From the IMG/VR virus record IMGVR_UViG_2703718778_000015: a stretch of DNA of 46,799 nucleotides; one strand, given 5' to 3'. The notes beneath the pieces are model-generated. The model searched no databases. It saw only the letters and a list, made by a program, of their open reading frames with translations, and had not been told where the DNA came from. Source of the stretch: a virus (lineage: Duplodnaviria > Heunggongvirae > Uroviricota > Caudoviricetes). A program made the translations under genes and the position numbers. Below, in pieces: positions 2,310 to 41,895 of the stretch (within the stretch, counting starts at the first letter, position 1; each line of letters opens with the position of its first letter).

Positions 2310-5300
2310 TCACGATGCGGTATCAAAATCGTCTGTATAGGATTTCAGGTAAAACAGAACCGGGTCATGGATCCGAATTTTACTCTTATCATGAAGTATT
2401 GAACCACCCATGTAAAAAAGCACATCTGCTTCATACCTGAATGTAATTTCAACCCGCACATCACCCTGTCCGGCAGGAATACTCCATGAGCCTGACGCAC
2501 TTCCGCCAACATCAGAATATACCGGCTCATATCTGCTGGCGTTTTTGGAAATCTGGACCTCCCGCTCCCCGGTTTTGACTTTGCCTGACCTGGCATGAAC
2601 GACAACTTTGTCATTTATCTTCATGATGAATTCACCTCTGGAAAATGAATACGCCATAAGCATAAGCTTGCGATCAAACGGCATGTTGTCTTTCAGCAAA
2701 ATCATTTTCTGAAAAGTCAGCTGGTTCTGAGTCATTACGCCCTGCCCCATATCAACCGTGTATCCCTTGACGATATCACCAATGATTCGGTCAGCGCTCA
2801 TCGTTCCATTAATGGTGCAGTCTTCCGCAATCGTCACGTTATTCAGCGTACCGGAACTGGCACTGATATTCCCGCTGATATCGGCATTACGGGCCGTCAG
2901 CCTGCCGTCCGGCGTCAGGGAGAATGCCGGGGGATTGCCACCGCTGGTAATGGTGGGGGCGGTAAGAACCTTTATCAGGGCCTCATTGATAAACGTCTGT
3001 CCCCCCTGCGTGACCAGTGCGGGTGTGGTATCACCATTCTCCGGATTAATGAATGCCACACGGTCCGCTGCCAGCAGTATCTGGCTCTGCATCCCGTCAG
3101 GGGTGTTCTCAATACCGGCACCGATACCGGCAATATAGCGACGACCATCCTGCATCTGCTGTAGCTTCACCGCCCACATGCTGTTCAGGTCATTATTTGT
3201 GTCCGTCTGCACACGCTGGATTTGCTGTATGGTGGCGTTCTGGTCCTCCAGCGTTTTACTGACCGTCTGTGTGATTTCATTGCGGGTTTCTGTGATGGTG
3301 GTCTGCATTTCCGCCATCTCGTCCTTCAGCTTGCTGTTGTCAATCTCTGCCCACAACGCCTCTGCCAGATGTGTTTTTCCTATCTTTTCCCGGAAAAACT
3401 CCAGATAGCCCGCAGCATCATCACTGGCCCGTCCACTGGCTTCCACAAAAGCAGATTTACCCACCAGGTTGACGCTGCGCACATAAAACCAGAAAACTTT
3501 CCCGGGTTTAATCTGGCTGCCGGAGACGCTCCACTGGCTGCCGGTCCCAAGATAACGGGCAGACGTTTCCACCTGTGCGGCGTCTGCAATTTTTGCCTCC
3601 GAAAACCAGAACTCAAACTGCACCGTCGGGTCATAAATGGTCAGTTTCGGGACTGCCGTTATCTGAAAATACCCCGGCGTCAGTTCAACACCGGCAGGCG
3701 CTGCCGGTGCGTTAATCCGGAACGTGGTGGTGGCGGGTTCGCCCTGCTGGCCATAACTGTTAATCGCCCTGACCGTCAGGGTGTATTCCCCGAGAGGCAG
3801 GCCACTGAAACGGTGCTCCGTATCGGCAGTGATGGCGGTGGTCAGCAGGCGGCTGTTCTCACCGCTTCCACTGGTCAGGCGCAGACTGAAGCGCACGCCC
3901 TTCACCACCCTCGGCGTGTCCCATTTCGCCAGCGCCAGATACTGGCTGTCAGCTGCGCTCACCTCCACCGTCAGGTGCTGCACTGCCGGTGGGATGACGC
4001 TGTTCAGGGAGCCTGACTGCGGCTCAAAGCGGGCACCGTTATCCACGATGGCTTCTTTTTCCGGTACGTGCTGCACCGCCGTGATGGCAAAGGTGCCGTC
4101 CGTGTTTTCCCGGATGGCCACACAGCGGAACAGGCGACGGCGAAGACCGGGCATTTTCAGTCCCCATACCCCGTATGTCTCCACGCCATCCGGCAAGGGG
4201 CTGACCTGTATCCGGTCCGGCGCGGGGTGTGCGGTGATGTCCACACTTACCGGCTTACCGCTGCCGTTAATCAGGTTCACCGTCGATGCACCTGTCCCCG
4301 GAAGTGTCACTTCACGGTCCAGCGTCAGGGTGCGGGTGGCAGCATCGATGGACAGGACACGTCCGCCGGTCAGGGTCCCGGCATAGTCGTTATCACAGAT
4401 TTCAATAATGTCACCGGGTGTGTGCCGCAGCCCCTGAGACCCGAGTGTGAAATCCACCGTCTGCGTTTCCAGCAGTTCGGTCTTTATCACCCACAGCCCG
4501 GCACGGTGGGCCTGACCGCGGCTGGTACAGCCGAACGCGTCCATCTTCAGCAGGTTGCGTCCGTAGCGCAGTATGGCGTCCGGGTCTTCCACCAGTTCCG
4601 TGGAGGTCTGCCAGCCGTTCTGCGGGTCGGTGTAATTCACCTCCACCGCCGTGTGCCGGTCCTTCAGGGCACTGAAGCTGTAGCGGAACCCCACGCCGTT
4701 ATCATCCACCACCACATCGCTGTTGGTGTACGGCCACACCACATCCGACGGGCGGTCCTGAACGAACGTCAGCGTCTGACCGTTCCATACCGGCATACAG
4801 CGCATCGCCGAGCAGAAATCACTGAGAACGTCCCACGCCTTACGCTGTTGTGCCAGGTACGCATTAAAGGTCATCCGCGGCTCTGTGCCCCCGAAACCAT
4901 CCGGGACCGTCTGGTCGCAGTACTGCCCGATGGCATACAGCGCCCACTTGTCCACATCCGCCGCCCCCAGGCGTTTTCCCATCCCGTAGCGCGGGTGAGT
5001 CAGCATGTCCCACAGACACCAGGCCGGGTTGTTGCTGTATGCCGGTTTCAGACTGCCGTCCCAGATACCGCTGTACGTGCGTTTTTCCGGGTCATAGTTT
5101 GACGGCACCTGGATGATGCGACCGCGGATATGGTAGTTCACCGTCATCTGCTGGCCGCCGAACTGCTCCGCATCCACCTGCAGCCCCACAATGGCCGTGT
5201 TCGGGTAGCACTGTTTCACATCGATGATTTCGGTGTATGACGACCACAGCGTCTTATTCTGCAGCTGGTCCGTGGTGCTGTCCGCCGTCTCCCTGACCAT

Positions 5301-21082: not shown

Positions 21083-21563
21083 CGAGTAAATCCGGTAATT
21101 TATCCCCCGCCCGCGCACACTGATTTGCCCCCTTCGCAATAAGGGTTTTCAGATGGTCAAGATGGCGCGGTGTTAAATCAGGAAACTGTCGCTGCATGGA
21201 TAAAGGGATGGAATCAAGCGTACTGGATAACGCCATTGCCAGCTTGCTGAGGGCAAAAATACAGAACCCGGTGTCAATAAGTTTTCCTTTTGACACCTCA
21301 TTTTTTAACTGCTGTGTAACAGCCTGTTCTGCTGTCAGTTCCCATCTGGCAATAAGCAATTTCTCCTCATAGTCGTCTTCGCTATCGCCATCAGGCACAT
21401 CGTTTTTACTTCTTCTCAGATACGATATGTAAAAATCGCGCCAGGCATCCAGATCCAGTTGCCCTCGCTTATTCGATATCGGGGCACCCGGCAATTTCTG
21501 CAATCTGCGAAGCTGGCGATCGGTCAGACTTAAATGCCTGGCAACTTCAGTCTGCGTAGCCAC
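21054..21563 (-). CDS. nu1: Terminase small subunit Nu1
   Basis: 169 aa; C-terminal half matches lambda Nu1 as remembered (TxFCxFxLSxxAxxxSxLDxxPLSxQRxFPxLxxRHxDxLK); N-terminal HTH; overlaps the A start as in lambda. Confidence 0.88.
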   Translation of the reverse strand: MATQTEVARHLSLTDRQLRRLQKLPGAPISNKRGQLDLDAWRDFYISYLRRSKNDVPDGDSEDDYEEKLLIARWELTAEQAVTQQLKNEVSKGKLIDTGFCIFALSKLAMALSSTLDSIPLSMQRQFPDLTPRHLDHLKTLIAKGANQCARAGDKLPDLLDEYIRATTE

Positions 21564-21746
21564 TCCTCACCTCGCAAAAACTCTCACCTCACAATCACAA
21601 CAAAACCGGTCATGTCCGGTTTTAGTGTCTATTTTTTGCGCATGTCCGGTTCATGGAAAGCATGTTTTTATATTTTTCATATGGTTAACTTGCATAGAAA
21701 CCGGACATGGATCCCGGAAAATTTTCATAAATAGTGAAAATCCGCG
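21564..21746 (-). promoter_or_regulatory. cosB region (terminase small-subunit and IHF binding region) between cosN and nu1
   Basis: Position between cosN and the Nu1 start, as in lambda; individual R and I1 sites were not mapped. Confidence 0.6.
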
Positions 21747-21758
21747 AGGTCGCCGCCC
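21747..21758 (-). other. cosN: 12-nt cohesive-end site (GGGCGGCGACCT on the minus strand)
   Basis: Plus strand aggtcgccgccc. Flanks match both lambda genome ends as remembered: minus-strand GCGGGTCCTTTCCGG.GATCCG...GTTACG before it and CTCGCGG.TTTTC.CTATTTATGAAAATTTTCCGG after it. Confidence 0.85.
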
Positions 21759-22018
21759 CGTAACGGCCCGGATCGCCGGAAAGGACCCGCGAAAATGATA
21801 ATGGTTATCAGTTGCAACAAAATCCAGTTTCTTCCACCATCGCACCGGACCAGCGACCATGAGGGGACAACGCCGCGCTCCGTTAACGCGGTAAACCCCG
21901 GTGTGTATCGTTTTTGATTATCCCCGCACACTCGCGCAGAGGAGTCTCCCTGTCGGGCTGCGGCCTCTGTTAATACGGGAATACGGCGACAATACCGCGC
22001 CATGGATAATAAGGTCGC

Positions 22019-22243
22019 TCAACACACTGGCTGTAATGCAGCCGATACCATGCGGCATTTAGCGGCATTCACAGCACACTCCACGGTTAGCTCTTCATTC
22101 GAGGCATCCACCCGAAAGACCCGGGAGTATGATTGCGTACATTTACCACTGAACGTACCTTCAACAAGAACACGACCAGGCTGCAAAACACGGAACGGAA
22201 TTGTTCCCTGAAAAGGCTTTACGGTTACCAGTAATTTCTTCAT
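22019..22243 (-). CDS. Hypothetical protein (74 aa) between Rz and cos
   Basis: ORF with GGAGGA upstream of the ATG; no recognisable motif; does not resemble lambda Bor as remembered. Confidence 0.35.
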   Translation of the reverse strand: MKKLLVTVKPFQGTIPFRVLQPGRVLVEGTFSGKCTQSYSRVFRVDASNEELTVECAVNAAKCRMVSAALQPVC

Positions 22244-22266
22244 ATATCCTCCGGATAATAAAAAGA

Positions 22267-22743
22267 CTACTTAATGCACTGAGTACGGATATATTCCTGC
22301 GCCCCTTCCAGTTGCTTCTGCATCGTCATCAGCCGCTCTCTGAGGGTGAAATAATCCCGTGTAACGGTGTCTGCCAGTTGGGGGCCGGTTGCATTATCCA
22401 CGCGGGCGGTGCCGGTGGCTTCACGCACGGGACCTGGACAGGTGGCGTTGATACGCAGGCGCTTACGACCAGCGGCAACATCAGCACGCAGAGTTTCATT
22501 TTCAGCTCTCGCATCGGCTAATTCCCTCGAGTATTTTGCATCGAGCGCAGCAACATCACGCTGGCGCACCTGCATGTCAGTAATGGTGGCATTCGCCTGT
22601 TCCAGCTCTCTGGCTTTTTTATCGCGCTGCGCTTTGTAGGTGATGGCGTTATCGCGGTAATGATTCAGCCCCAGACTAAGCGCACCACAGACCACCAGCA
22701 GAATAACAGTAAACGCGGAAAGAATTCGGTTTATGCTCACCAT
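22267..22743 (-). CDS. Rz: Spanin, inner-membrane subunit Rz
   Basis: 158 aa; close match to lambda Rz as remembered (NHYRDNAITYKAQRDK, MQxRQRDVAALDAKY, RDYFTLRERLxTMQKQLEG). Confidence 0.92.
   Translation of the reverse strand: MVSINRILSAFTVILLVVCGALSLGLNHYRDNAITYKAQRDKKARELEQANATITDMQVRQRDVAALDAKYSRELADARAENETLRADVAAGRKRLRINATCPGPVREATGTARVDNATGPQLADTVTRDYFTLRERLMTMQKQLEGAQEYIRTQCIK
22329..22514 (-). CDS. Rz1: Spanin, outer-membrane lipoprotein subunit Rz1, embedded in the +1 frame of Rz
   Basis: 61 aa; lipobox LVVSAC and Pro-rich core (CVKPPAPPAWIMQPAPNWQTPLHGIISPSE) closely resembling lambda Rz1 as remembered. Confidence 0.88.
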   Translation of the reverse strand: MRELKMKLCVLMLPLVVSACVSTPPVQVPCVKPPAPPAWIMQPAPNWQTPLHGIISPSESG

Positions 22744-22751
22744 GCCCCCTG

Positions 22752-23519
22752 TCAGAAATTGCAGATTATCAGCTCGCTGACACTGCTTGTCTTACCACGT
22801 GGTACAGTATAACGATGAGCAACATGATGAATATTCATCCCCTCAAACAATCGTCTCATTTCCTGCGAATCGTTCAGGGATATAATCATTTTGCCTTTTA
22901 TTGTGCGGGCAAGTTCTGCCATGCGCTCATAATTGCAGAATGAAAAATCAATGCCGTAACCACCATCCAACCAATACGGAGGATCGCAGTAAAACAGCGT
23001 TGTCGGGCGGTCATACCGTGCGATACAGACCTCCCAGTCAAGGTGTTCAATAGTTGCCCGCGCCAGCCGATCACGGGCTTCCTGCAATAACTGCTCTGTA
23101 TTCCCGGGGATTATCTGCGGTCTGTGAGTTTTAACTCCAAATGCCCGACTGTATGCTCTTCCGCCATACGCGCACTTCTGGATAAAAAAGAAACGGACAG
23201 CCCGCTGGATATCCGTCATGTACTCCGTGTGCTGATTTATCACCTCATTCCACATCTCACGACTGGCGAGCATCCACTGAAACTGGCGGGAAAATTCCTC
23301 CTGGTGGTACTTCACCACACGGTAGAGATTAACGATATCACTGTTTATATCGTTGATGATTTCAGCGCAGCTCGGTTTTTTCATAAAGAACAGTGCCGCA
23401 CCGCCACAGAACGGTTCCACATACAGAGTGTGCTCAGGAAATAACGGCAGAATATGTTTTGCCAGACGACGCTTCCCTCCTAACCACGGGAGAAACGGTT
23501 TTGCAGAGTTATTATTCAT
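22752..23519 (-). CDS. DNA N6-adenine methyltransferase (Dam-like, D12 class), orphan
   Basis: 255 aa; motif I FCGGAALFF and catalytic DPPY (YCDPPYWLDGGYG); no adjacent restriction endonuclease candidate. Confidence 0.85.
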   Translation of the reverse strand: MNNNSAKPFLPWLGGKRRLAKHILPLFPEHTLYVEPFCGGAALFFMKKPSCAEIINDINSDIVNLYRVVKYHQEEFSRQFQWMLASREMWNEVINQHTEYMTDIQRAVRFFFIQKCAYGGRAYSRAFGVKTHRPQIIPGNTEQLLQEARDRLARATIEHLDWEVCIARYDRPTTLFYCDPPYWLDGGYGIDFSFCNYERMAELARTIKGKMIISLNDSQEMRRLFEGMNIHHVAHRYTVPRGKTSSVSELIICNF

Positions 23520-23788
23520 TTCACCACCAGCGGATTTCCCGGATTAGAACCGCAATTGCCACAATGCGAATGGCAAATGCCGTTGCCCGAATAAATTCAG
23601 TACTCATCTGTTTAAATAAATTGTCGTCATCAGTCACTGTCACCCCACCAGCCCTGCCGAAGTCAACGCCATCCAGGCTATGGAAAGAAAAAGAGCAACC
23701 ATCATTAGCGAAAATGAAACGCCGACAATCACACAGATGGTCTTCGCCAGCGTTATGAGTTTGCCTGATATCATTAGACGCCACTCCA

Positions 23789-24358
23789 TCAATCCGTCTT
23801 TGTGATTTTTCCTTTGCCTGTATCAGCCAGGACAAAACCAATCAGCAGATTCGCTTCGTTTATCAACGTGCGAATTTTTGATACATGCGCGGCTTTAACC
23901 AGTTTCCATTCGTTTAACCCTGTACCAAACAGACTGGCAATGTTTTTATCCCGTTTCATGTCAGCGCATGCCTGGTTGAGTTCTTCCATCACGCTCATTT
24001 GACGAGGATTAACGACAAAACCCTTCGTCCAGTATTCATAGAGAACATCGTCGCACTCTTCCTGATACTGGATAACCTTGTCGCGGATTCCGGGTTTTAC
24101 TTTGTTGGGATTGATGGTTTGTAACCAGCCTGCAAGTTTTCGAAGTGGCAGGGACACCATATTGCGTCGTTTCCCGTCCTCAGCAACCATAACGATTTCC
24201 GTTATAGTTGACGCAAAACGCTGTCTTAACTTAGCCAACTGTGATTGCCAGGCCAGCCCCATCCCCGCAACGACAGGTTTCATGGGAACGTATGGTTCGC
24301 CGTTATGGTTAACCACATAAAGAGAATCGCCGTGAAACGGCACGGTTATCATATTCAT
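23789..24358 (-). CDS. Putative antirepressor (Ant-like N-terminal domain protein)
   Basis: 189 aa; the N-terminus (ITVPFHGDSLYVVNHNGEPYVPMKPVVAGMGLAWQSQ) resembles the AntA/AntB-type N-terminal domain of phage antirepressors as I remember it; sits between R and Rz. Confidence 0.6.
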   Translation of the reverse strand: MNMITVPFHGDSLYVVNHNGEPYVPMKPVVAGMGLAWQSQLAKLRQRFASTITEIVMVAEDGKRRNMVSLPLRKLAGWLQTINPNKVKPGIRDKVIQYQEECDDVLYEYWTKGFVVNPRQMSVMEELNQACADMKRDKNIASLFGTGLNEWKLVKAAHVSKIRTLINEANLLIGFVLADTGKGKITKTD

Positions 24359-24631
24359 CGGTTATTTCCTTTTAGTGATGAACCCTGCGCACAGGAATAA
24401 CCAGCCCAAAGAGGGTTAACCAGACCACTGCCGGTTATCCACCAGGGCTCATCCTGAAAGGTTCTTTGGTTTATTTACGCTTGTGCGAAGCGCAGAAATG
24501 CCAAAGGCACCATTACGGTGCCTCTGCGTGAAACAATGTTCCTGACTTTATTCACTTAGGTTTTGCCAGTTCGCAGGATTTCGTGTTATCCGTCCGCGTT
24601 GGTCAACGTCATTTTTCAGCAAAATATTCTG

Positions 24632-25165
24632 CTACCTGTCGATACCCCAGCATGCCAGCGCACTCTCCTGGTCGCGACGGGATACCTGACCGTAGCAATT
24701 ATTTGAGCGAATACGGCAGTCTCTGCCACCGTCCTTAATCCACCAGCGAATCGCTTCGCAGGCACCTTTTCGATCGCCTGCATTAATTCGTTTATAAAAC
24801 GTCGACGGGAAACACTTACCGGGGCCAATGTTGTAAGGACAGAATGACGCAATTCCCGCTTTCTGGGGTTCGGTCAGCGGCACTCTGATGTTTTTCTCCA
24901 CCCACGCCAGCGCTTTATCACGCTCAATGGCGTTAACCTGGTCGCATTTTTCCTTCGACAGTTTCATGCCAGGAACAACAGGTTTGCCATCCACCACCGT
25001 GGCACCCCGGCAGATGGTCCATATACCAGAACCATCACGGTATGCTGTGGTGTGGTTACCTTCTTTTTCATCCAGAAACTGGTCGAGAATATCAGGCGCA
25101 GGCGCCCCTGCGGCAATCAGCGCCAGAACGGCAGCCGACAGGCCGTATTTGATTTTGGTGTTCAT
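24632..25165 (-). CDS. R: SAR endolysin R (T4-lysozyme-like muramidase with signal-anchor-release N-terminus)
   Basis: 177 aa; Gly/Ala-rich weakly hydrophobic N-terminus (YGLSAAVLALIAAGAPAP) followed by the E-x8-D-x5-T catalytic triad (EGNHTTAYRDGSGIWTICRG). Confidence 0.88.
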   Translation of the reverse strand: MNTKIKYGLSAAVLALIAAGAPAPDILDQFLDEKEGNHTTAYRDGSGIWTICRGATVVDGKPVVPGMKLSKEKCDQVNAIERDKALAWVEKNIRVPLTEPQKAGIASFCPYNIGPGKCFPSTFYKRINAGDRKGACEAIRWWIKDGGRDCRIRSNNCYGQVSRRDQESALACWGIDR

Positions 25166-25296
25166 GGATATTTATCAGGATTTATCGGTTCCGAATCCCT
25201 GGATATGTTAAGCCTTCACCCCACCAGTGGTGGGCACTGGCGGGTTCTTAATTTCCCCGGATGATCGTGGATTACATTCCACCAGGAGATTACTTA

Positions 25297-25928
25297 TGCT
25301 TATCTATCCAGCGGCAGACCTCCGTTTACAGGGACGCAGAGCACAACCATGGGATAAAACAACCACTCATAAATATCGTCCCGGTCAATATTATGACTTT
25401 CGTAAACACCCGGAACTGATCGAGACACACCTTGAGGATTTTGTTGAATATTCAGACAGACAAGCGATTCAGACCTTTTTTTCTTTTGTTAAGTGGATCA
25501 ACAGCAATTCATCTGCATTCGAGAGCACGGACTGCATGTTTTCAGGAACACCAAAGGTTGATGAATACGCCCCGGTATTTGGTTGCACCCATGCGTCATC
25601 TGGCCGCTTCGAATTTTTGTTTCGCGATACGAAAATAAACCAAAATGAGCGAGCTGTCGGATGGGTACTTAACAAACTATCGCTCTACCTTCAGAAAGAA
25701 CGGCCCGATTTTTGTAAAGGAACCTTTGGCATCGTTCCCCTCATGACGGAATATACCGACTCCGGCAGTAACGAGTTCACCGGTTATCGTATTTGTGTCT
25801 ATTTCGATGCTTACGGGAATGGAACAGAGGATACCTGGACTTCTCTCAACATCATGTTTGATGGCCTCATGAAAGCCACCAAAAGAATGAGCAATGAAAC
25901 AATCACTGGCGAGATGCGTCCCCTTTAA
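25297..25928 (+). CDS. Hypothetical protein (about 210 aa), plus strand, in low-GC insertion between S and R
   Basis: Long ORF with AGGAGA RBS 6 nt upstream of the ATG; no recognisable motif; its 3' end overlaps the convergent ORF at 25677-26468 by about 250 bp. Confidence 0.4.
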
Positions 25929-26468
25929 AAAATTATCCAGAATTTCACTATTTGCAGAGCGCTCTCTGTTTTTTTGAATACGGAAACACTCTGCGAGATT
26001 TCTGCTCATCACTTTCCGGCAATAATCGTAAAACGCCGCGAACTGCTCATCACGGCGTTTTTTTTCACCTTCGGAAGGGATCTGCACCGACAGTTTTTTA
26101 TTCAGTTCAACGACGCTGTTCTCCAGTTTTTCAATGCGTGATTCGATATCATCTTTTTCTGACTGTATCGTGTTATATGCATTGTTAATTTGTATGGTAT
26201 ACCGCTCTTCTGAACAAAGGCGCTTTTCCGGCAACGGTTCGTTCCCTTCACATAACCCGGCAGCAATATCCATGAAAAACTGCTTCGCCTTCTTTTTCGC
26301 CTCAGCTTCGTAAAACTCCAGCGGGGCACCTTCAACACGATCAAGATCAATCACCACATTTGGCAACAACAGTGACGTATACCCACCAGTTTCCAGCGCC
26401 ACAGTAACAGTAATCTTATCCGGGTAAATATTTATCCCTTTAACAACCAGTTCGTATTGTTTATTCAT
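25677..26468 (-). CDS. Hypothetical protein (263 aa) immediately downstream of holin S
   Basis: ATG 3 nt after the S stop with a GGGAGAG RBS; predicted coiled-coil centre (IESRIEKLENSVVELNKKL); low-GC region; no recognisable catalytic motif. Confidence 0.5.
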   Translation of the reverse strand: MNKQYELVVKGINIYPDKITVTVALETGGYTSLLLPNVVIDLDRVEGAPLEFYEAEAKKKAKQFFMDIAAGLCEGNEPLPEKRLCSEERYTIQINNAYNTIQSEKDDIESRIEKLENSVVELNKKLSVQIPSEGEKKRRDEQFAAFYDYCRKVMSRNLAECFRIQKNRERSANSEILDNFLKGTHLASDCFIAHSFGGFHEAIKHDVERSPGILCSIPVSIEIDTNTITGELVTAGVGIFRHEGNDAKGSFTKIGPFFLKVER

Positions 26469-26471
26469 CGT

Positions 26472-26687
26472 CTACTCTCCCCGCGCCGCCTTACGCCGGT
26501 CTTCTTTAATTTTGAAATACAGGTTCGTCAGATATGTCAGCAGACCAAACAGCAGACTCCCCAGCACGCCTATTGCCGCCCACTGAGACGGGGAAACCCT
26601 GTCCAGCAACTGCAGGAACCAGTAGCCCGTTCCCACCGCTGACGTGGTGTATGACACACCTGTTGTGATTTTTTCCATCTGGTACAT
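26472..26687 (-). CDS. S: Pinholin S (phage 21 S21-type), dual-start motif
   Basis: 71 aa; near-identical over most of the length to S21 as remembered ([25 protein letters not shown]...[22 protein letters not shown]); Met1 and Met4 (MYQM) give the antiholin/holin dual start. Confidence 0.9.
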
Positions 26688-26762
26688 ACCCCGTCTCCCG
26701 CAATCCGGAAGCTCACAACAACAAGTGGGGCATCAGCTCACACCGACACCCCCTGCGCATGG

Positions 26763-27033
26763 TTACATCATCATTTCGCCGTCAGGCTGAGGCTCTTCAC
26801 TACCGTCAGGCTGAGACCCGACGCCATCTGAAACAGCACTGTCATCCGCAATGCCTTCCGGCTCCGGAACAGTCGGTGCGCCCAGCAGTTCATCCAGAAT
26901 GGCATCCACTTCTGCATCAAGACGCGCCTCAAGGTTCTGCCGAAGTTGCTGTTTCAGTGCGCTTCTGACTTCTTCAGAGCGCAGGACTTCCTTCACTGCC
27001 TCAGCAGTGACCAGCGATTTTATTTCTGACATA
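26763..27033 (-). CDS. Hypothetical acidic protein (about 90 aa)
   Basis: ORF from the internal Met (MSEIKSLV...); the longer ORF-track start overlaps the upstream gene; acidic C-terminus. Confidence 0.4.
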
Positions 27034-27057
27034 GGATTTTCTCGTTGAAAGGGGTTA

Positions 27058-27252
27058 TTAAGAAGGTTGTTCCGGAATGAGTGGGGCTTCTGTTTTTGCT
27101 CCGGCTGACTGACTGGCGCTGATTTTCTCTGCGGCCCTTTTATCAATCTGCCTGCGCCAGGAATCGCGCACTGCCCTGTACCCACCCGAAAGAAGATACA
27201 GCACACAGACCGCCGTACAGAAGTACAGCATCACCTGATGAATAAATGTCAT
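27058..27252 (-). CDS. Hypothetical small membrane protein (64 aa)
   Basis: N-terminal hydrophobic helix (VMLYFCTAVCVLYLL); function unknown. Confidence 0.35.
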   Translation of the reverse strand: MTFIHQVMLYFCTAVCVLYLLSGGYRAVRDSWRRQIDKRAAEKISASQSAGAKTEAPLIPEQPS

Positions 27253-27270
27253 AGTTTCTTACCGTTATGG

Positions 27271-27299
27271 TTGACAATGAGAACTGTTTTCATTTAAAA
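27271..27299 (+). promoter_or_regulatory. Sigma70-like promoter with perfect -35 (TTGACA, 17-bp spacer, TTAAAA/TAAAAA -10)
   Basis: Direct reading: ttgacaatgagaactgttttcatttaaaaa, in the intergenic gap between nanS-p and the 64-aa ORF. Confidence 0.4.
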
Positions 27300-27305
27300 A
27301 ACCAA

Positions 27306-27387
27306 TGTACGAAAGCATCTTTTCTTTACATTCTCCATTGGGATTACCTCCGCCAGCTTCCGTTCCTGCCGCTGGCGGTTTTTTTTT
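27306..27387 (+). ncRNA. Candidate small RNA of about 80 nt (promoter to intrinsic terminator), antisense orientation relative to the late operon
   Basis: Promoter above plus the terminator at 27349-27387; no ORF in the interval. Confidence 0.35.
27349..27387 (+). terminator. Intrinsic terminator on the plus strand
   Basis: ccgccagc-ttccgttcctgcc-gctggcgg followed by T9; no T-tract on the minus-strand side. Confidence 0.6.
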
Positions 27388-27392
27388 GCCGG

Positions 27393-29372
27393 TTATGCTG
27401 ATGCCCGGCTTTCGTTAACGTTGACAGTGACCGTATCAAGCAGTACCGGATACGTCGCTTTTGTCCCCGTGATATCTGTCAGCGTCAGCGTATCTGCTGT
27501 AAAGCCATCATTTGTCCACATCACAAGGTCAAATGCCGTCTGCTCTGCACCATCAATCACCGGAACAACTCTTTCGCTGTTATTTCCCGCAAAGCGGAAA
27601 ACAACCGTATGCCAGTTATGGTCAAACGTACCAAATGTACCCAGTTGTGCATTCGAGGAGCCCTTCTGGTGCATCAGATTAAGATTTGATGTATCCGTCT
27701 GAAGGAAGAATGATGCCAGCATACTGTTTGCTGTCGCGCCTGACGCCCACTGCGACACCGGCCAGTAGATACCAAAGACAAACTGTCCGTTCACCAGCTC
27801 GCTTCCATCCGGAATTTTGAACCGTACGGCAATTTCCCCCCCCTTGCTGAGAAGATTTTTTGCCTCCTCCACTGCAATAGTACGGAACATTTTCCAGGAC
27901 GTCAGTTTACCGGGCTGTTTTTCCAGTCGCAGCGCTTTCCGTCCACCGTCATCAGTCACAGTGCCTTTGCCGCCGGAAGCGCCCCACTGCTGCTCTGTCA
28001 ATGCACCATTTCCACTGTTCGCATCATATTCAGCCACCGTCCTGGTACTGCTCACGGCCTCATCATGACCAGTACCAGCAACACCGCCATCCTGCGGTTT
28101 CTCAACATCCGGTGTCCCCGGACTGACAGGCGTTGTACCACCCGACTGCGGTGCGCTCTGCCCGGTAAGGAACGATAATGTCCGCCCGGCGTACTGCAAA
28201 ATGGCACCTGCCAGGCGGTCTGAAACAAGGCCTCTTCGCGCCCATGAACTGAAGTGCGTTTTACGATCGGCTGCCGTCCAGTTACTGGCAGTGCGTGACG
28301 CAGCGCCATAGTATCCCGCCGGGATAATGTCCGGATCTTCTGACGGCTCGTTTGTCGGCACATTCACACCATGCTCATCCGTCATCAACGGCACAAAGTG
28401 AATATTCTGCGCAGCTTTTCCTTTATACCCACCGTAAACCGCCTCATACGGCACTGCATACCTTTCCTTCCAGTAGTACGTGGTATCACCGCAAATCCAC
28501 GGGACGCTGGCCGTTGTCCCGCCAGTACACTGCTCTGCCACATCTGCCAGTTCCGTACGGAACTGATTTACCATGGCAAGGAAAAGCGCATTGTGTTCTG
28601 CATGTCTCCCCGAACTGACATCTTTTTCTCCCTGCATCCAGATCACTGATAACAGCACGTTCTTCGGATTTTTCTTCAGGGCCGCACGGGTTCTGCTGAC
28701 CAGGTCATGATACAGCGGTTTATCCGCCCCCCACAGGGACGAGCCTGCGGTCGCTCCCGACGCTTCGTTAAACGCCCCCTCGGCCCCCGCAGTAAATCCC
28801 GAATCGCCACGGCCACATGGAACAAGAAGGATACCCGCATTCGCAGGCATAAACGGCAGCAGCTTTTTGGCAACATGCAGAGCATGCCCCACACAACCGT
28901 ACTGTCCCTTACTCAGGTCTGCATGAGGATGATTCAGGTTACTCATATCCTGCACATCATGCAGACAGTGGTCTGCCGGAATGATGTCGTTATATTTACA
29001 GGCGGCACCACCCGGCGTCACCGTACTGCGACGCGCCAGCTGTTTAATACGCGGGTCCGGACGGTCATATGTCTCCGGCAGCGGCAGCCCTTCACCAAAA
29101 GACATTGAGTTTGACTGCCCCGCCAGAACAACAACAAAGTAATACTCCGGTTCGCTGGTGGTGCTGATAACTGTGCCTTCTCCATCCGACGGCTTCACCA
29201 CCACAGGTGTGGTGACATCACCTTCCGCCGCAATGGCCTGCATCAGGGTATAAGGCGTGATGGCCACCGGGCTGCCAAATGGCTGCCACCCCTCCTTCAG
29301 TTTTTGAGTCAGTCGCTCCGCAAGGTCTGACGGCGACGCCGCCCTGACCACATCGTAGTGTTTAAATGTCAT
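27393..29372 (-). CDS. nanS-p: Sialate O-acetylesterase NanS-p-like protein (prophage-encoded)
   Basis: 659 aa; recognised as the esterase found between stx and the lysis genes in Stx-type prophages. The family call is from memory of those proteins and of the locus position, not a motif scan. Confidence 0.75.
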   Translation of the reverse strand: MTFKHYDVVRAASPSDLAERLTQKLKEGWQPFGSPVAITPYTLMQAIAAEGDVTTPVVVKPSDGEGTVISTTSEPEYYFVVVLAGQSNSMSFGEGLPLPETYDRPDPRIKQLARRSTVTPGGAACKYNDIIPADHCLHDVQDMSNLNHPHADLSKGQYGCVGHALHVAKKLLPFMPANAGILLVPCGRGDSGFTAGAEGAFNEASGATAGSSLWGADKPLYHDLVSRTRAALKKNPKNVLLSVIWMQGEKDVSSGRHAEHNALFLAMVNQFRTELADVAEQCTGGTTASVPWICGDTTYYWKERYAVPYEAVYGGYKGKAAQNIHFVPLMTDEHGVNVPTNEPSEDPDIIPAGYYGAASRTASNWTAADRKTHFSSWARRGLVSDRLAGAILQYAGRTLSFLTGQSAPQSGGTTPVSPGTPDVEKPQDGGVAGTGHDEAVSSTRTVAEYDANSGNGALTEQQWGASGGKGTVTDDGGRKALRLEKQPGKLTSWKMFRTIAVEEAKNLLSKGGEIAVRFKIPDGSELVNGQFVFGIYWPVSQWASGATANSMLASFFLQTDTSNLNLMHQKGSSNAQLGTFGTFDHNWHTVVFRFAGNNSERVVPVIDGAEQTAFDLVMWTNDGFTADTLTLTDITGTKATYPVLLDTVTVNVNESRASA

Positions 29373-29553
29373 GAATCCTCCCGGTCGGGATAATGTTGTG
29401 AGTCAGATAAGGAGCGAGCTGAAGTCCGGAAGTTACAGGACAATGGCAGGAGGAAGACTACAGCCCGCAATACGAAAAAGGCCGCGCAGTTGCGCAGCCT
29501 TATGAATTCTGGTTAAAATCCATTCGATTATAAAAATGTATATCTCATGCTGT

Positions 29554-29580
29554 TGCCCGAACCCACTCGGGCTTTTTTTT
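29554..29580 (+). terminator. Intrinsic terminator on the plus strand, within a cluster of GC-rich stem-loops
   Basis: gcccgaacccactcgggc followed by T8; the adjacent hairpin gcccctccggagaggggc (about 29595-29612) has a U-rich tail on the minus strand, making the pair bidirectional. Confidence 0.5.
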
Positions 29581-29944
29581 GCCCACAAGAAAGCCCCTCC
29601 GGAGAGGGGCTAAAGCCGCGTATCTGTATCATCATGCACATGGTGCCGGGTGCCTCCCGGTGAGTTCAGCCCGGTGCCACTAAACCCGCGTCATTCTCGT
29701 TTTGATAATCAGAGATTATACCGTCACCAGTCGCCCCTCCGCTCAGGGGGATTCACCATGCCAGTTTCTTTTAACAAACTCCCCGCAAACCAGACAACAG
29801 TCAACCGCCTGAATTGTGAGGTATTTAAAAATTTCAACGGGTAACTGATACCCTGCTAATCGCCTGATGCTTTCTTTTTCAGCAACGGGAAAGCAACAAC
29901 CACCACACCCATCAGCCGCCCATTTACCACAAATAAAAAAGCCT

Positions 29945-30359: not shown

Positions 30360-30932
30360 TTATTGATCAGTTTGCAACATTTTTTTCTCTGTAACAAAAG
30401 CCATACGCATGGGGGCATGTAACATAAATTCAGATATCCCCAACCACTGATCAATTCGGCGTCTGCACGTAACCAACGTCCACTCAGGATGATCTGCATT
30501 TAACCTTTCGGCCATTTTCAGTTTGCTCATTCCCCGTCCTTCGTACCTTTGCCGGAGAATATTGATTAGTCCGGGATATTCCCCAAGCACCTCACTGATA
30601 ACGCGATCAATAATCAACGCCTCTGTGTCTGTACAATGTGACAACCAGCTCTTCTGCTTCCCTCTGGTCATATCCCGAAAAAATGCCTCAAGTTCCGGTT
30701 TTTCCAGCCCGGATTTCTTCATTCTGCGTAAAACCTCATTAACTGCTGTTTTCGTCAGCTTTTTCGAAACCAGTAACCGGTTAAACATATTTCCGGATTT
30801 ACCCCCACCGATATACGACCACCGCCCCCACATCCGTAATTTCCCCTGGATCCAGACTGCTTCCAGCGTGTTCAGACGTAAATGTTCGCCGCTTTTGCCT
30901 GTAATTTCCGGATATATCATATTTACGCTCAC
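30360..30932 (-). CDS. Putative late-gene antiterminator (Q-like), assigned mainly by position
   Basis: 190 aa; sits between rusA and the tR'-like terminator/lysis region; does not resemble lambda Q as remembered, so family membership is unverified. Confidence 0.45.
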   Translation of the reverse strand: MSVNMIYPEITGKSGEHLRLNTLEAVWIQGKLRMWGRWSYIGGGKSGNMFNRLLVSKKLTKTAVNEVLRRMKKSGLEKPELEAFFRDMTRGKQKSWLSHCTDTEALIIDRVISEVLGEYPGLINILRQRYEGRGMSKLKMAERLNADHPEWTLVTCRRRIDQWLGISEFMLHAPMRMAFVTEKKMLQTDQ

Positions 30933-32797: not shown

Positions 32798-32953
32798 TTA
32801 CTCCTCAGGTTCGTAAACTGTGAAGACAGCGACCTCCGTCTGGCCGGTTCGGATTCGTACCTCGCAGAGGTCTTTCCTCGTTACCAGTGCCGTCACTATG
32901 ACGGTTAAACAGATGACGATCAGGGCGATTAACATCGCCTTTTGCTGCTTCAT
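32798..32953 (-). CDS. hok: Hok-family type I toxin (small membrane peptide)
   Basis: 51 aa, MKQQKAMLIALIVICLTVIVTALVTRKDLCEVRIRTGQTEVAVFTVYEPEE, one residue from HokD/RelF as remembered; strong AAGGAGAAG RBS. Confidence 0.9.
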   Translation of the reverse strand: MKQQKAMLIALIVICLTVIVTALVTRKDLCEVRIRTGQTEVAVFTVYEPEE

Positions 32954-33244
32954 AGCCTGCTTCTCCTTGCCTTTCGGCACGTAAGAGGCTAACCTAGATT
33001 TGCCGTTCATAGATTGAGCCTCAGATTAATGTTAAGCGTCTTGCAGGACGCGTAATGTTAACTGGGGCTTTTCTCTATCTGCCTTTTGGTATTCATGCCT
33101 GAGACAGATAGCCTCAAGCACCCGCAGCAATTCTACTTAACTATCCTTTCCCCGCAAATCGTTTTTATCCCCAGCGACAAATCGAATACACCACCAGCGC
33201 CACCGCCATTGCGATCCCTACCGTTGTGAATGCCTCAGGCCAGG

Positions 33245-41387: not shown

Positions 41388-41895
41388 TGCTTAATGAATC
41401 CTTAAAACTGTGGTGATTTTAAGGATACCACCTCGCCTGACGTGGTTAAAAGCAGGCACACAACACGAAAGCGCACGGCGAGGTTTCTGGTTCATAGATG
41501 GCTTGTCGTTAAATTTTCGTCGACCGTGCGCTCCCGGTTGTGGCAATCCGCGAAACGGCGCGGCGGTAAGTATGGCGGGGGTACTCTTCTCCCCCTGTGG
41601 AGCACCGGGTTGTCAGGTTGACCATACGCTTAAGAGACAACCACGCTGCAACGCCCTCTGTTATCCATTTTCTGGTGACGTTTGGCGGTATCAGTTTTAC
41701 TCCGTGACTGCTCTGCCGCCCTTTTTAAAGTGAATTTTGTGATGTGGTGAATGCGGCTGAGCGCACGCGGAACAGTTAAAACCAAAAACAGTGTTATGGG
41801 TGGATTCTCTGTATCCGGCGTTAATTGTTAACTGGTTAACGTCACCTGGAGGCACCAGGCACCGCATCACAAAATTCATTGTTGAGGACGCGATA

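Follow-up and report, generated by a model that had tools for sequence, protein, structure and literature searches.

A rare Dam-family methyltransferase gene ahead of Rz/Rz1 in the lysis cassette of a lambda-like Escherichia coli prophage

The IMG/VR record IMGVR_UViG_2703718778_000015 is a lambda-like E. coli prophage of 46,799 nt (in the following called the window), whose lysis genes are all located on the minus strand. Between the endolysin gene R and the spanin genes Rz/Rz1 it encodes an Ant-like protein, two small hydrophobic proteins and an orphan N6-adenine DNA methyltransferase (MTase) of the Dam family. The order R, spacer, ant, small open reading frame (ORF) and Rz is the already annotated standard cassette of Stx-type phages, and it is the placement of the MTase gene which is new and rare. 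We propose, with a probability of roughly 0.6, that the MTase is a late-expressed enzyme which protects the progeny DNA from restriction.

The cassette, its rare insert and the insertion boundaries

In a megablast search of region 22200-25200 against 50,697 phage records, 427 records matched at 80-95% identity, nearly all of them Stx-converting or related lambdoid phages. Each of these matches consists of two pieces, which cover about 65% of the query and leave out approximately 1 kb where the MTase gene sits. The annotated order in the matching phages is R, ant, a hypothetical protein of about 49 amino acids and Rz. The Stx2 phage 86, BP-4795 and P13374 share the order with the window from the class II holin to Rz/Rz1 at 88-93% nucleotide identity, so that the window cassette is syntenic with the Stx-phage type (holin, R, spacer, ant, small ORF, Rz/Rz1) and highly similar to it at the nucleotide level. 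In these phages the stop codon of the small ORF overlaps the start of Rz (GTGA), whereas in the window about 0.9 kb with a second small ORF and the MTase gene lie in between. The window prophage further differs from Stx-type phages in lacking stx and in having a lambda-type Nu1/A terminase.

The MTase insert was found at the DNA level in none of the 50,697 phage records. Sequences matching the flanks are present in 496 of 5,426 complete E. coli genomes, but the insert in only five, with three copies at an identity of 99.7% or higher and two at about 87%. Likewise, a large protein collection holds two close MTase clusters (99% and 87% identity), and the next relatives do not exceed 60%. Draft assemblies and IMG/VR prophages match the 6-kb lysis region of the window at 97-98% identity, and a coverage of at least 80% is reached by none of the complete E. 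coli genomes. The first-pass annotation of this sequence had regarded ant and the MTase gene as a joint insertion and had proposed to compare lysis cassettes across related prophages. That comparison leaves the MTase as an insertion, absent from the phage records as it is, and withdraws ant, which is standard in Stx-type cassettes; an Ant gene between R and Rz, noted there for some Stx-type phages, is in fact the rule in them. As these alignments show, there are two layers between R and Rz, the ant module, which is common, and the MTase ORF of about 0.8 kb, which is rare. The ant module is ancestral to this type of cassette, and only the MTase gene is an unusual insertion.

In every locus recovered, be it from complete genomes, drafts, Logan assemblies or six IMG/VR prophages, the MTase gene lies directly upstream of Rz/Rz1. 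The prophages carrying it belong to at least four backgrounds with respect to their terminases (lambda Nu1/A, DUF1441 plus GpA, Stx-type, and HK97-type/HNH), and one of the loci (L003) is without ant.

The features of the window which are referred to in this paper are given below with coordinates, strand and the evidence for the assignment.

30360-30932, minus strand: Q (DUF1133/antitermination Q)
26472-26687, minus strand: P21-type class II holin (PF04971)
25677-26468, minus strand: DUF1327 ORF (Pfam)
24632-25165, minus strand: endolysin R, a phage lysozyme of 177 amino acids (PF00959, E 1e-24)
24359-24631, minus strand: R-ant spacer of 273 nt, free of ORFs (ORF scan, folding)
24505-24523, minus strand: core of a putative terminator-like hairpin (folding)
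23789-24358, minus strand: Ant-like gene, 189 amino acids (PF10547, PF10549)
23640-23792, minus strand: small hydrophobic ORF 1, 43-50 amino acids (phrog_4906, E 5e-27)
23521-23607, minus strand: small hydrophobic ORF 2, 28 amino acids, MSTEFIRATAFAIRIVAIAVLIREIRWW (homologous ORF in SCU-111 and PhiR5_1)
22752-23519, minus strand: Dam-family (D12, alpha-class) N6-adenine DNA methyltransferase, 255 amino acids (PF02086, E 8.7e-27)
22744-22751, minus strand: MTase-Rz junction of 8 nt, CAGGGGGC, with a Shine-Dalgarno-like G run for Rz (sequence)
22267-22743, minus strand: spanin Rz, 158 amino acids (PF03245, E 8e-49)
22329-22514, minus strand: Rz1, 61 amino acids, embedded in Rz (PF06085, E 1e-19)

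The span 22752-24358 given by the first-pass annotation is exact, since its ends are the final base of the MTase stop codon and the initial base of the start codon of the Ant-like gene. Its distance of about 1.9 kb between R and Rz was measured as 1,888 nt, and its 8-bp gap between MTase gene and Rz corresponds to 22744-22751. In E. coli loci which are almost identical R carries the annotation lysozyme as well. The lambda-type terminase genes Nu1 and A follow downstream of Rz/Rz1.

In the alignment with P13374, where the stop of the small ORF overlaps the Rz start (…GGGGTGAGCATAAACCGA…), the short allele shows an ORF-sized block which has the repeated hexamer GGTGAG on both sides and contains a duplicated G-rich ribosome-binding context (GGGGGATATG… / …TGACAGGGGGTATGGTGAG). 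The left joint of the window allele is at the stop of the small ORF 2 (TGGTGGTGAAATGAA…), and in E. coli SCU-111 and phage PhiR5_1, neither of which has the MTase gene, the same 28-amino acid ORF abuts the Rz start (TGGTGGTGATATGAAC…). The right joint between MTase gene and Rz is identical in all loci, and so is the 8-nt junction in every MTase-bearing locus compared. Short shared sequences, either GGTGAG or ATGAA, are thus present at the edges of the insert, which fits a recombination event between sequences that have only a few nucleotides in common, after which the MTase-Rz unit spread via homologous exchange. The 113 nt upstream of the MTase gene, where PGAP calls the small ORF 2 a partial pseudogene in L001, were considered as a remnant of the donor; this was rejected, as the 28-amino acid ORF precedes Rz in the MTase-free SCU-111 and PhiR5_1. 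The base composition across the MTase region shows no anomaly in GC content and therefore gives no indication of the donor. The R-Rz interval of lambdoid lysis cassettes acts as a cargo slot. Recombination at such short stretches can place a bare ORF in it, which can then spread among phages with unrelated packaging modules.

Identity, selection and target of the methyltransferase

The MTase reaches 94.9 bits with PF02086 (cut-off 22) and barely passes the TIGR00571 'dam' subfamily model (115.2 versus 114.85). It is further matched by phrog_56 (E 3e-90) and by the PADLOC model MTase_II (E 6e-92), and a phmmer search of the PDB sequences returned DpnM (E 4e-18) and EcoDam (E 1e-14). The motifs FCGGAALFF and DPPY, which had led to the earlier assignment to the Dam class, are located at amino acids 37-45 and 179-182, and FCGGA (37-41) and DPPY are invariant in 33 members of the subfamily. 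Motif I (FxGxG) is N-terminal to motif IV (DPPY) with the target-recognition region in between, which is the order of the alpha class. The AlphaFold2 model has a predicted local distance difference test score (pLDDT) of 79.7 and a predicted template modelling (TM) score of 0.81. The top 26 PDB matches of this model in Foldseek are EcoDam, DpnM, Mcbe1 and T4Dam (E down to 4e-18, TM 0.64-0.76), with TM scores of 0.73-0.76 to EcoDam and DpnM and of 0.64-0.68 to T4 Dam. Due to motif order, profile matches and predicted fold the protein is assigned to the D12-class, Dam-family, alpha-class N6-adenine MTases, and the earlier assignment is thus borne out by Pfam, NCBIfam, the PDB sequence search and the fold match to EcoDam.

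It is a remote member of that family. The canonical Dam equivalog model NF008152 yields only 69.7 bits where 441 are demanded, and EcoDam, DpnM and T4 Dam share the fold and the motif order with it at an identity of only 23-26%. According to the published DNA complexes of EcoDam and T4Dam the residues K9, N120, L122, R124 and P134 read the GATC sequence, the last four of them from a beta-hairpin. This hairpin comprises residues 118-139 of EcoDam and contains the motif NVPFGRY, which DpnM has as well. Neither these residues nor the motif are conserved in the MTase, which has P11 and YGGRAYSRAFGVKTHRP in these places, the alignment of the loop being uncertain. The subfamily has a consensus of its own in the hairpin, FGGKVxxxTFGTxTTSxPR, and it is in this hairpin (amino acids 118-134) that the model of the window protein is least reliable, with a pLDDT below 50. 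From this comparison a GATC specificity of the MTase cannot be assumed. Two analogies were considered for the target and discarded, the one with Hia5/Hin1523, which are a distant subfamily, and the one with M.EcoGII, which is of the beta class. The window contains 124 GATC sites in comparison to about 213 expected from the trinucleotide frequencies. Lambda has a similar GATC density, and the scarcity therefore says nothing on the target of the MTase.

No nuclease, second MTase or defence match was found among the flanking, lysis- and early-region ORFs scanned, a scan which stops short of the structural half of the window, and no restriction partner was found near the MTase gene in related loci either. 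A restriction-modification pair was therefore rejected for the regions scanned, and the gene can be called an orphan as it was in the first-pass annotation.

The MTase gene is an intact ORF of 255 codons in all loci fetched that carry it, although the two alleles are about 12% apart at the DNA level. Between the window allele and the 87% alleles the ratio of non-synonymous (dN) to synonymous (dS) substitutions is 0.31 overall. The divergence is concentrated in three patches at amino acids 111-140, 183-195 and 226-247 (approximate borders), inside of which dS is 0.90 and dN 0.39. Outside of them dS is 0.24 and dN 0.04 (dN/dS 0.16), and the catalytic core is clearly under purifying selection. 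As dS is also raised about fourfold in the patches, they were acquired through recombination with a lineage that is more distant, and do not simply reflect a relaxation of constraint. One recombinant is found in the database itself, the representative P0002, whose patch 3 is of the window type whereas its patches 1 and 2 are of the other type. The patches coincide with surface loops of lower confidence in the model (amino acids 118-134 as mentioned above; amino acids 181-190 and 231-250 with an average pLDDT of 66-70), and it is mainly in these DNA-facing loops that the two E. coli alleles differ.

It is tempting to speculate, though we hold this only tentatively, that the enzyme is no GATC Dam but belongs to a Dam subfamily which is specific to phages and has another or a less strict target, and that its DNA-facing loops are swapped between alleles by recombination. 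The lysis cassette would thus carry a diversifying, late-expressed anti-restriction or anti-defence module, the specificity of which shifts by loop exchange. With a new or relaxed target the MTase would show in a small natural protein how the specificity of a Dam fold can change, and it might be of use as a reagent. With GATC as its target it would be a routine find.

One homologue, the E. coli protein P0003 of 320 amino acids, shows in the alignment an internal tandem duplication of about 65 amino acids across the DPPY region, which is probably an artefact of assembly or recombination.

Ant-like protein, small ORFs, spacer and other features of the window

The Ant-like protein contains P22_AR_N (PF10547, E 9e-45) at residues 5-113 and ORF11CD3 (PF10549, E 5e-7) in its C-terminal part, and it matches phrog_524, 'anti-repressor Ant', with E 1e-108. 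P22_AR_C (PF10548) was not found in it at E values up to 0.01. The homology to Ant stated in the first-pass annotation is confirmed by the domain search to this extent, that only the N-terminal domain of P22 Ant is present. P22 Ant has about 300 amino acids and the Ant-like protein 189. The same gene is present in the 427 phage records. The Ant protein of Phi24B, on which Fogg et al. carried out experiments, is similar to P22 Ant chiefly in its C-terminal part (PMC3064807), and due to this it is probably a different protein from the Ant-like protein of the lysis cassette. The name antirepressor for the gene in the lysis cassette is a matter of annotation only.

The interval from ant to the MTase gene comprises 269 nt (23520-23788) with the two small hydrophobic ORFs. 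The small ORF 1 overlaps the stop codon of ant and has one predicted membrane span. It is intact in six diverged cassettes and is called a hypothetical protein in the annotations; the ratio of non-synonymous to synonymous polymorphism (pN/pS) is below 1 in its frame alone, and this for closer pairs only. The small ORF 2 ends 1 nt before the ATG of the MTase gene. A third ORF of 106 amino acids (23521-23841), which overlaps both small ORFs and shares the frame of ORF 2 but not that of ORF 1, matches phrog_3246 (E 5e-39). The substitution patterns, which are weak evidence, make a miscall probable. Either the phrog_3246 family has been built on miscalled ORFs or this is a case of overprinting.

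The spacer between R and ant was described in the first-pass annotation as about 270 bp of non-coding DNA with a stem-loop, which agrees with the 273 nt found here; no ORF of 30 or more amino acids is present on the coding strand. The spacer has a minimum free energy of -85.6 kcal/mol (z -3.2 in comparison to shuffled sequences) and is conserved in Stx-type phages; a comparison of six loci shows the first 86 nt or so behind R to be conserved throughout. No Rfam family was found in the R-Rz interval, neither in a search of the whole window at gathering thresholds nor in region 22000-25300 with E values up to 1, and the spacer thus belongs to none of the RNA families described. A hairpin (GGCACC-GUAAU-GGUGCC, extended to 10 pairs) with a U-rich tail behind it is predicted at a distance of about 95 nt from the end of R; the 61-nt fold has -21.4 kcal/mol (z -2.6). 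The ant-less cassettes L003 (about 5190-5222) and L006 contain a different canonical hairpin with a U-tract in the same position, after the same 86 nt or so. That the position is kept in two versions of the sequence suggests a real terminator or 3'-end element, which would be read through by the Q-modified polymerase.

A second cargo slot is present between holin and R (25166-26000). The DUF1327 ORF matches its family over the first 100-170 amino acids or so only, and then approximately 0.8 kb of other sequence follows, which is at least 99% identical in 132 of the 5,426 complete E. coli genomes and mostly unannotated there. The annotations of L002 and L003 show a DUF1327 gene which is cut off at the same point. 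The interval also contains an antisense ORF of 233 amino acids (25227-25928, plus strand) without match in Pfam, PHROG or PADLOC. PADLOC gave no defence match for the cargo of this interval, for the Ant-like protein or for the small ORFs.

Elsewhere in the window Rfam identified an AsxR-like anti-sRNA with 63.0 bits, which equals the gathering score, beside an STnc100 element downstream of Q in this prophage without stx. The sok antitoxin RNA and DicF were found as well; the Rfam matches span 29525-29790, 32948-33123 and 41670-41721 overall.

Proposed role and comparable systems

Q, the STnc100-type element, an SASA-esterase-like gene, the holin gene, R, the cargo, Rz/Rz1 and the terminase genes are all encoded on the minus strand. 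The MTase gene is separated by 1 nt from the stop of the small ORF 2 upstream and by 8 nt from Rz downstream. A simple consensus scan of 21500-27500 showed neither a promoter-like site upstream of the MTase gene nor a terminator-like site in the gap from its stop codon to Rz. It returned one weak promoter-like site over the 6 kb, where 6.9 are expected by chance; it is located inside the 3' end of the MTase gene (22793-22765). One weak terminator-like site lies inside the ORF (23206-23192). The tight packing of the MTase gene into the late operon, as it had been described before, is supported by these data. Without a promoter upstream and a terminator downstream of its own the gene is no classical moron in the sense of an autonomous transcription unit. 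As it has neither of these signals and shares the strand with Q, holin, R, Rz and terminase genes, it is most likely transcribed only within the Q-antiterminated late transcript.

The following course of events is proposed. The R-Rz interval would act as a cargo slot, which holds the standard module and the bare MTase ORF. The MTase would be translated from its own Shine-Dalgarno sequence, which is present in front of the gene, alongside the lysis proteins, and it would methylate the replicating and packaged phage DNA. The progeny phages may then arrive in the next host already modified and resist those restriction enzymes which are sensitive to the modification. Late methylation and the anti-restriction function, both of them proposals, gain support from the subfamily, which recurs beside late or lysis genes in other phages as described below.

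Several points weigh against this proposal. The insert is rare, with about 1% of the comparable cassettes having it, and the gene is therefore not generally needed. The target is not predictable, because the GATC-contacting residues of EcoDam are not conserved, and as the searches for relatives returned no characterised protein with more than 60% identity, none is close enough to transfer a target motif. In case the target is GATC, the MTase would be redundant with the host Dam in E. coli. Finally, the terminator-like hairpin between R and ant could limit the transcription downstream if the Q-modified polymerase does not read through it.

A role inside the phage is an unlikely but not negligible explanation. 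The MTase could act on the timing or regulation of late genes, it could label the phage DNA for its replication, its repair or its packaging, in the way in which P1 Dam acts in pac cleavage, or it could help to escape host mismatch repair. If the target is GATC, the fast-replicating DNA would become fully methylated through the additional Dam activity at a late stage of infection, and the under-representation of GATC in the window as well as the Com-type translational control of the homologue in phage B3 would be in line with such a role. However, the association with at least four unrelated terminase systems makes a role in packaging unlikely, and since about 99% of the comparable cassettes do without the MTase no core function of the phage depends on it.

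Somewhat less probable still is a lysogenic conversion, in which the MTase is expressed from the prophage and reprograms the methylome of the host, be it that this serves epigenetic regulation or that it works as a 'molecular vaccine' against restriction-modification systems entering the cell. Orphan MTases of prophages are reported to be able to alter host phenotypes in other species (PMC12435837). The weak promoter-like site could be taken as a further hint, but it is situated at the 3' end of the MTase gene and would drive Rz instead, and neither the missing promoter-like site upstream nor the gaps of 1 and 8 nt to the neighbours favour an expression in the lysogen. Moreover, comparable orphan MTases encoded by E. 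coli prophages are reported to be transcriptionally silent in lysogens (PMC4659465), and silence in lysogens is reported a second time (PMC5778455).

That the gene is a decaying passenger without function, left behind by illegitimate recombination, is very improbable: the rarity of the insert and the junctions at short shared sequences, which are typical for such events, would agree with it, but the ORF is full-length in all loci fetched that carry it and in both alleles in spite of their divergence, the core dN/dS is 0.16, the catalytic motifs are all intact, and the gene has spread into several phage backgrounds. Equally little speaks for a hidden two-gene system with the Ant-like gene or the small ORFs as restriction-like, toxin-like or superinfection-exclusion partner, as the weak PADLOC match to PD-Lambda-5_B (E 4e-18) is by far surpassed by the plain Type II methyltransferase model (E 6e-92), and the small membrane ORFs, which are always just upstream of the MTase gene, and the Ant-like protein have no defence or nuclease match and are present in hundreds of MTase-free phages, while one MTase locus is without ant.

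The positions of related genes in other phages are informative. The members of the subfamily with 50-60% identity to the window MTase form a very large group of phage and prophage proteins across Gamma- and Betaproteobacteria. The representative P0117 is indexed in 2,682 blocks and is found in Mu-like Enterobacterales prophages beside a holin/transglycosylase operon, and in VP882 a member follows the tail gene D. In a Salmonella enterica draft (L027, 5001-8149) a MTase with 58% identity is encoded directly upstream of the holin-lysozyme-Rz cassette of a lambdoid prophage, which is a second, independent link of this subfamily to the lambdoid lysis cassette, this time at the other end of it. A location among late genes or adjacent to lysis genes is a recurrent trait of the subfamily. 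The subfamily occurs in thousands of Enterobacterales prophages without the residues by which EcoDam reads GATC, and no characterisation of its specificity was found.

Orphan MTases of phages are well known as a counter to restriction, and their position in late operons is known as well from Mu mom, B3 and phiE125. The arrangement in the window is similar to that of the Burkholderia phage phiE125, in which holin, endolysin, Rz and MTase genes follow each other on the same strand, so that the MTase gene adjoins the lysis genes. The protein gp27 of phiE125 (and gp26 of phi1026b) belongs to the same Dam subfamily, with 52.6% identity over the full length, and is reportedly an active adenine methyltransferase. 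In this siphovirus, which is unrelated and infects another host, the gene comes after Rz with a gap of 142 nt, whereas the window MTase gene precedes Rz. ORF48 of the Pseudomonas phage B3 is a late-expressed member with 49.6% identity which is found among tail genes behind a Com-like translational regulator; unlike B3 the window contains no Com-like gene. Mom and the enzymes of the Hia5/Hin1523 type, which occupy the mom position, are late-expressed adenine modifiers and protect phage DNA from many restriction enzymes (PMC3299994). Hia5 and Hin1523 are non-specific and are placed in another, much more remote Dam-like subfamily (15% identity to MboIA). The late position of the subfamily described here matches the logic of Mu Mom and of Hia5/Hin1523.

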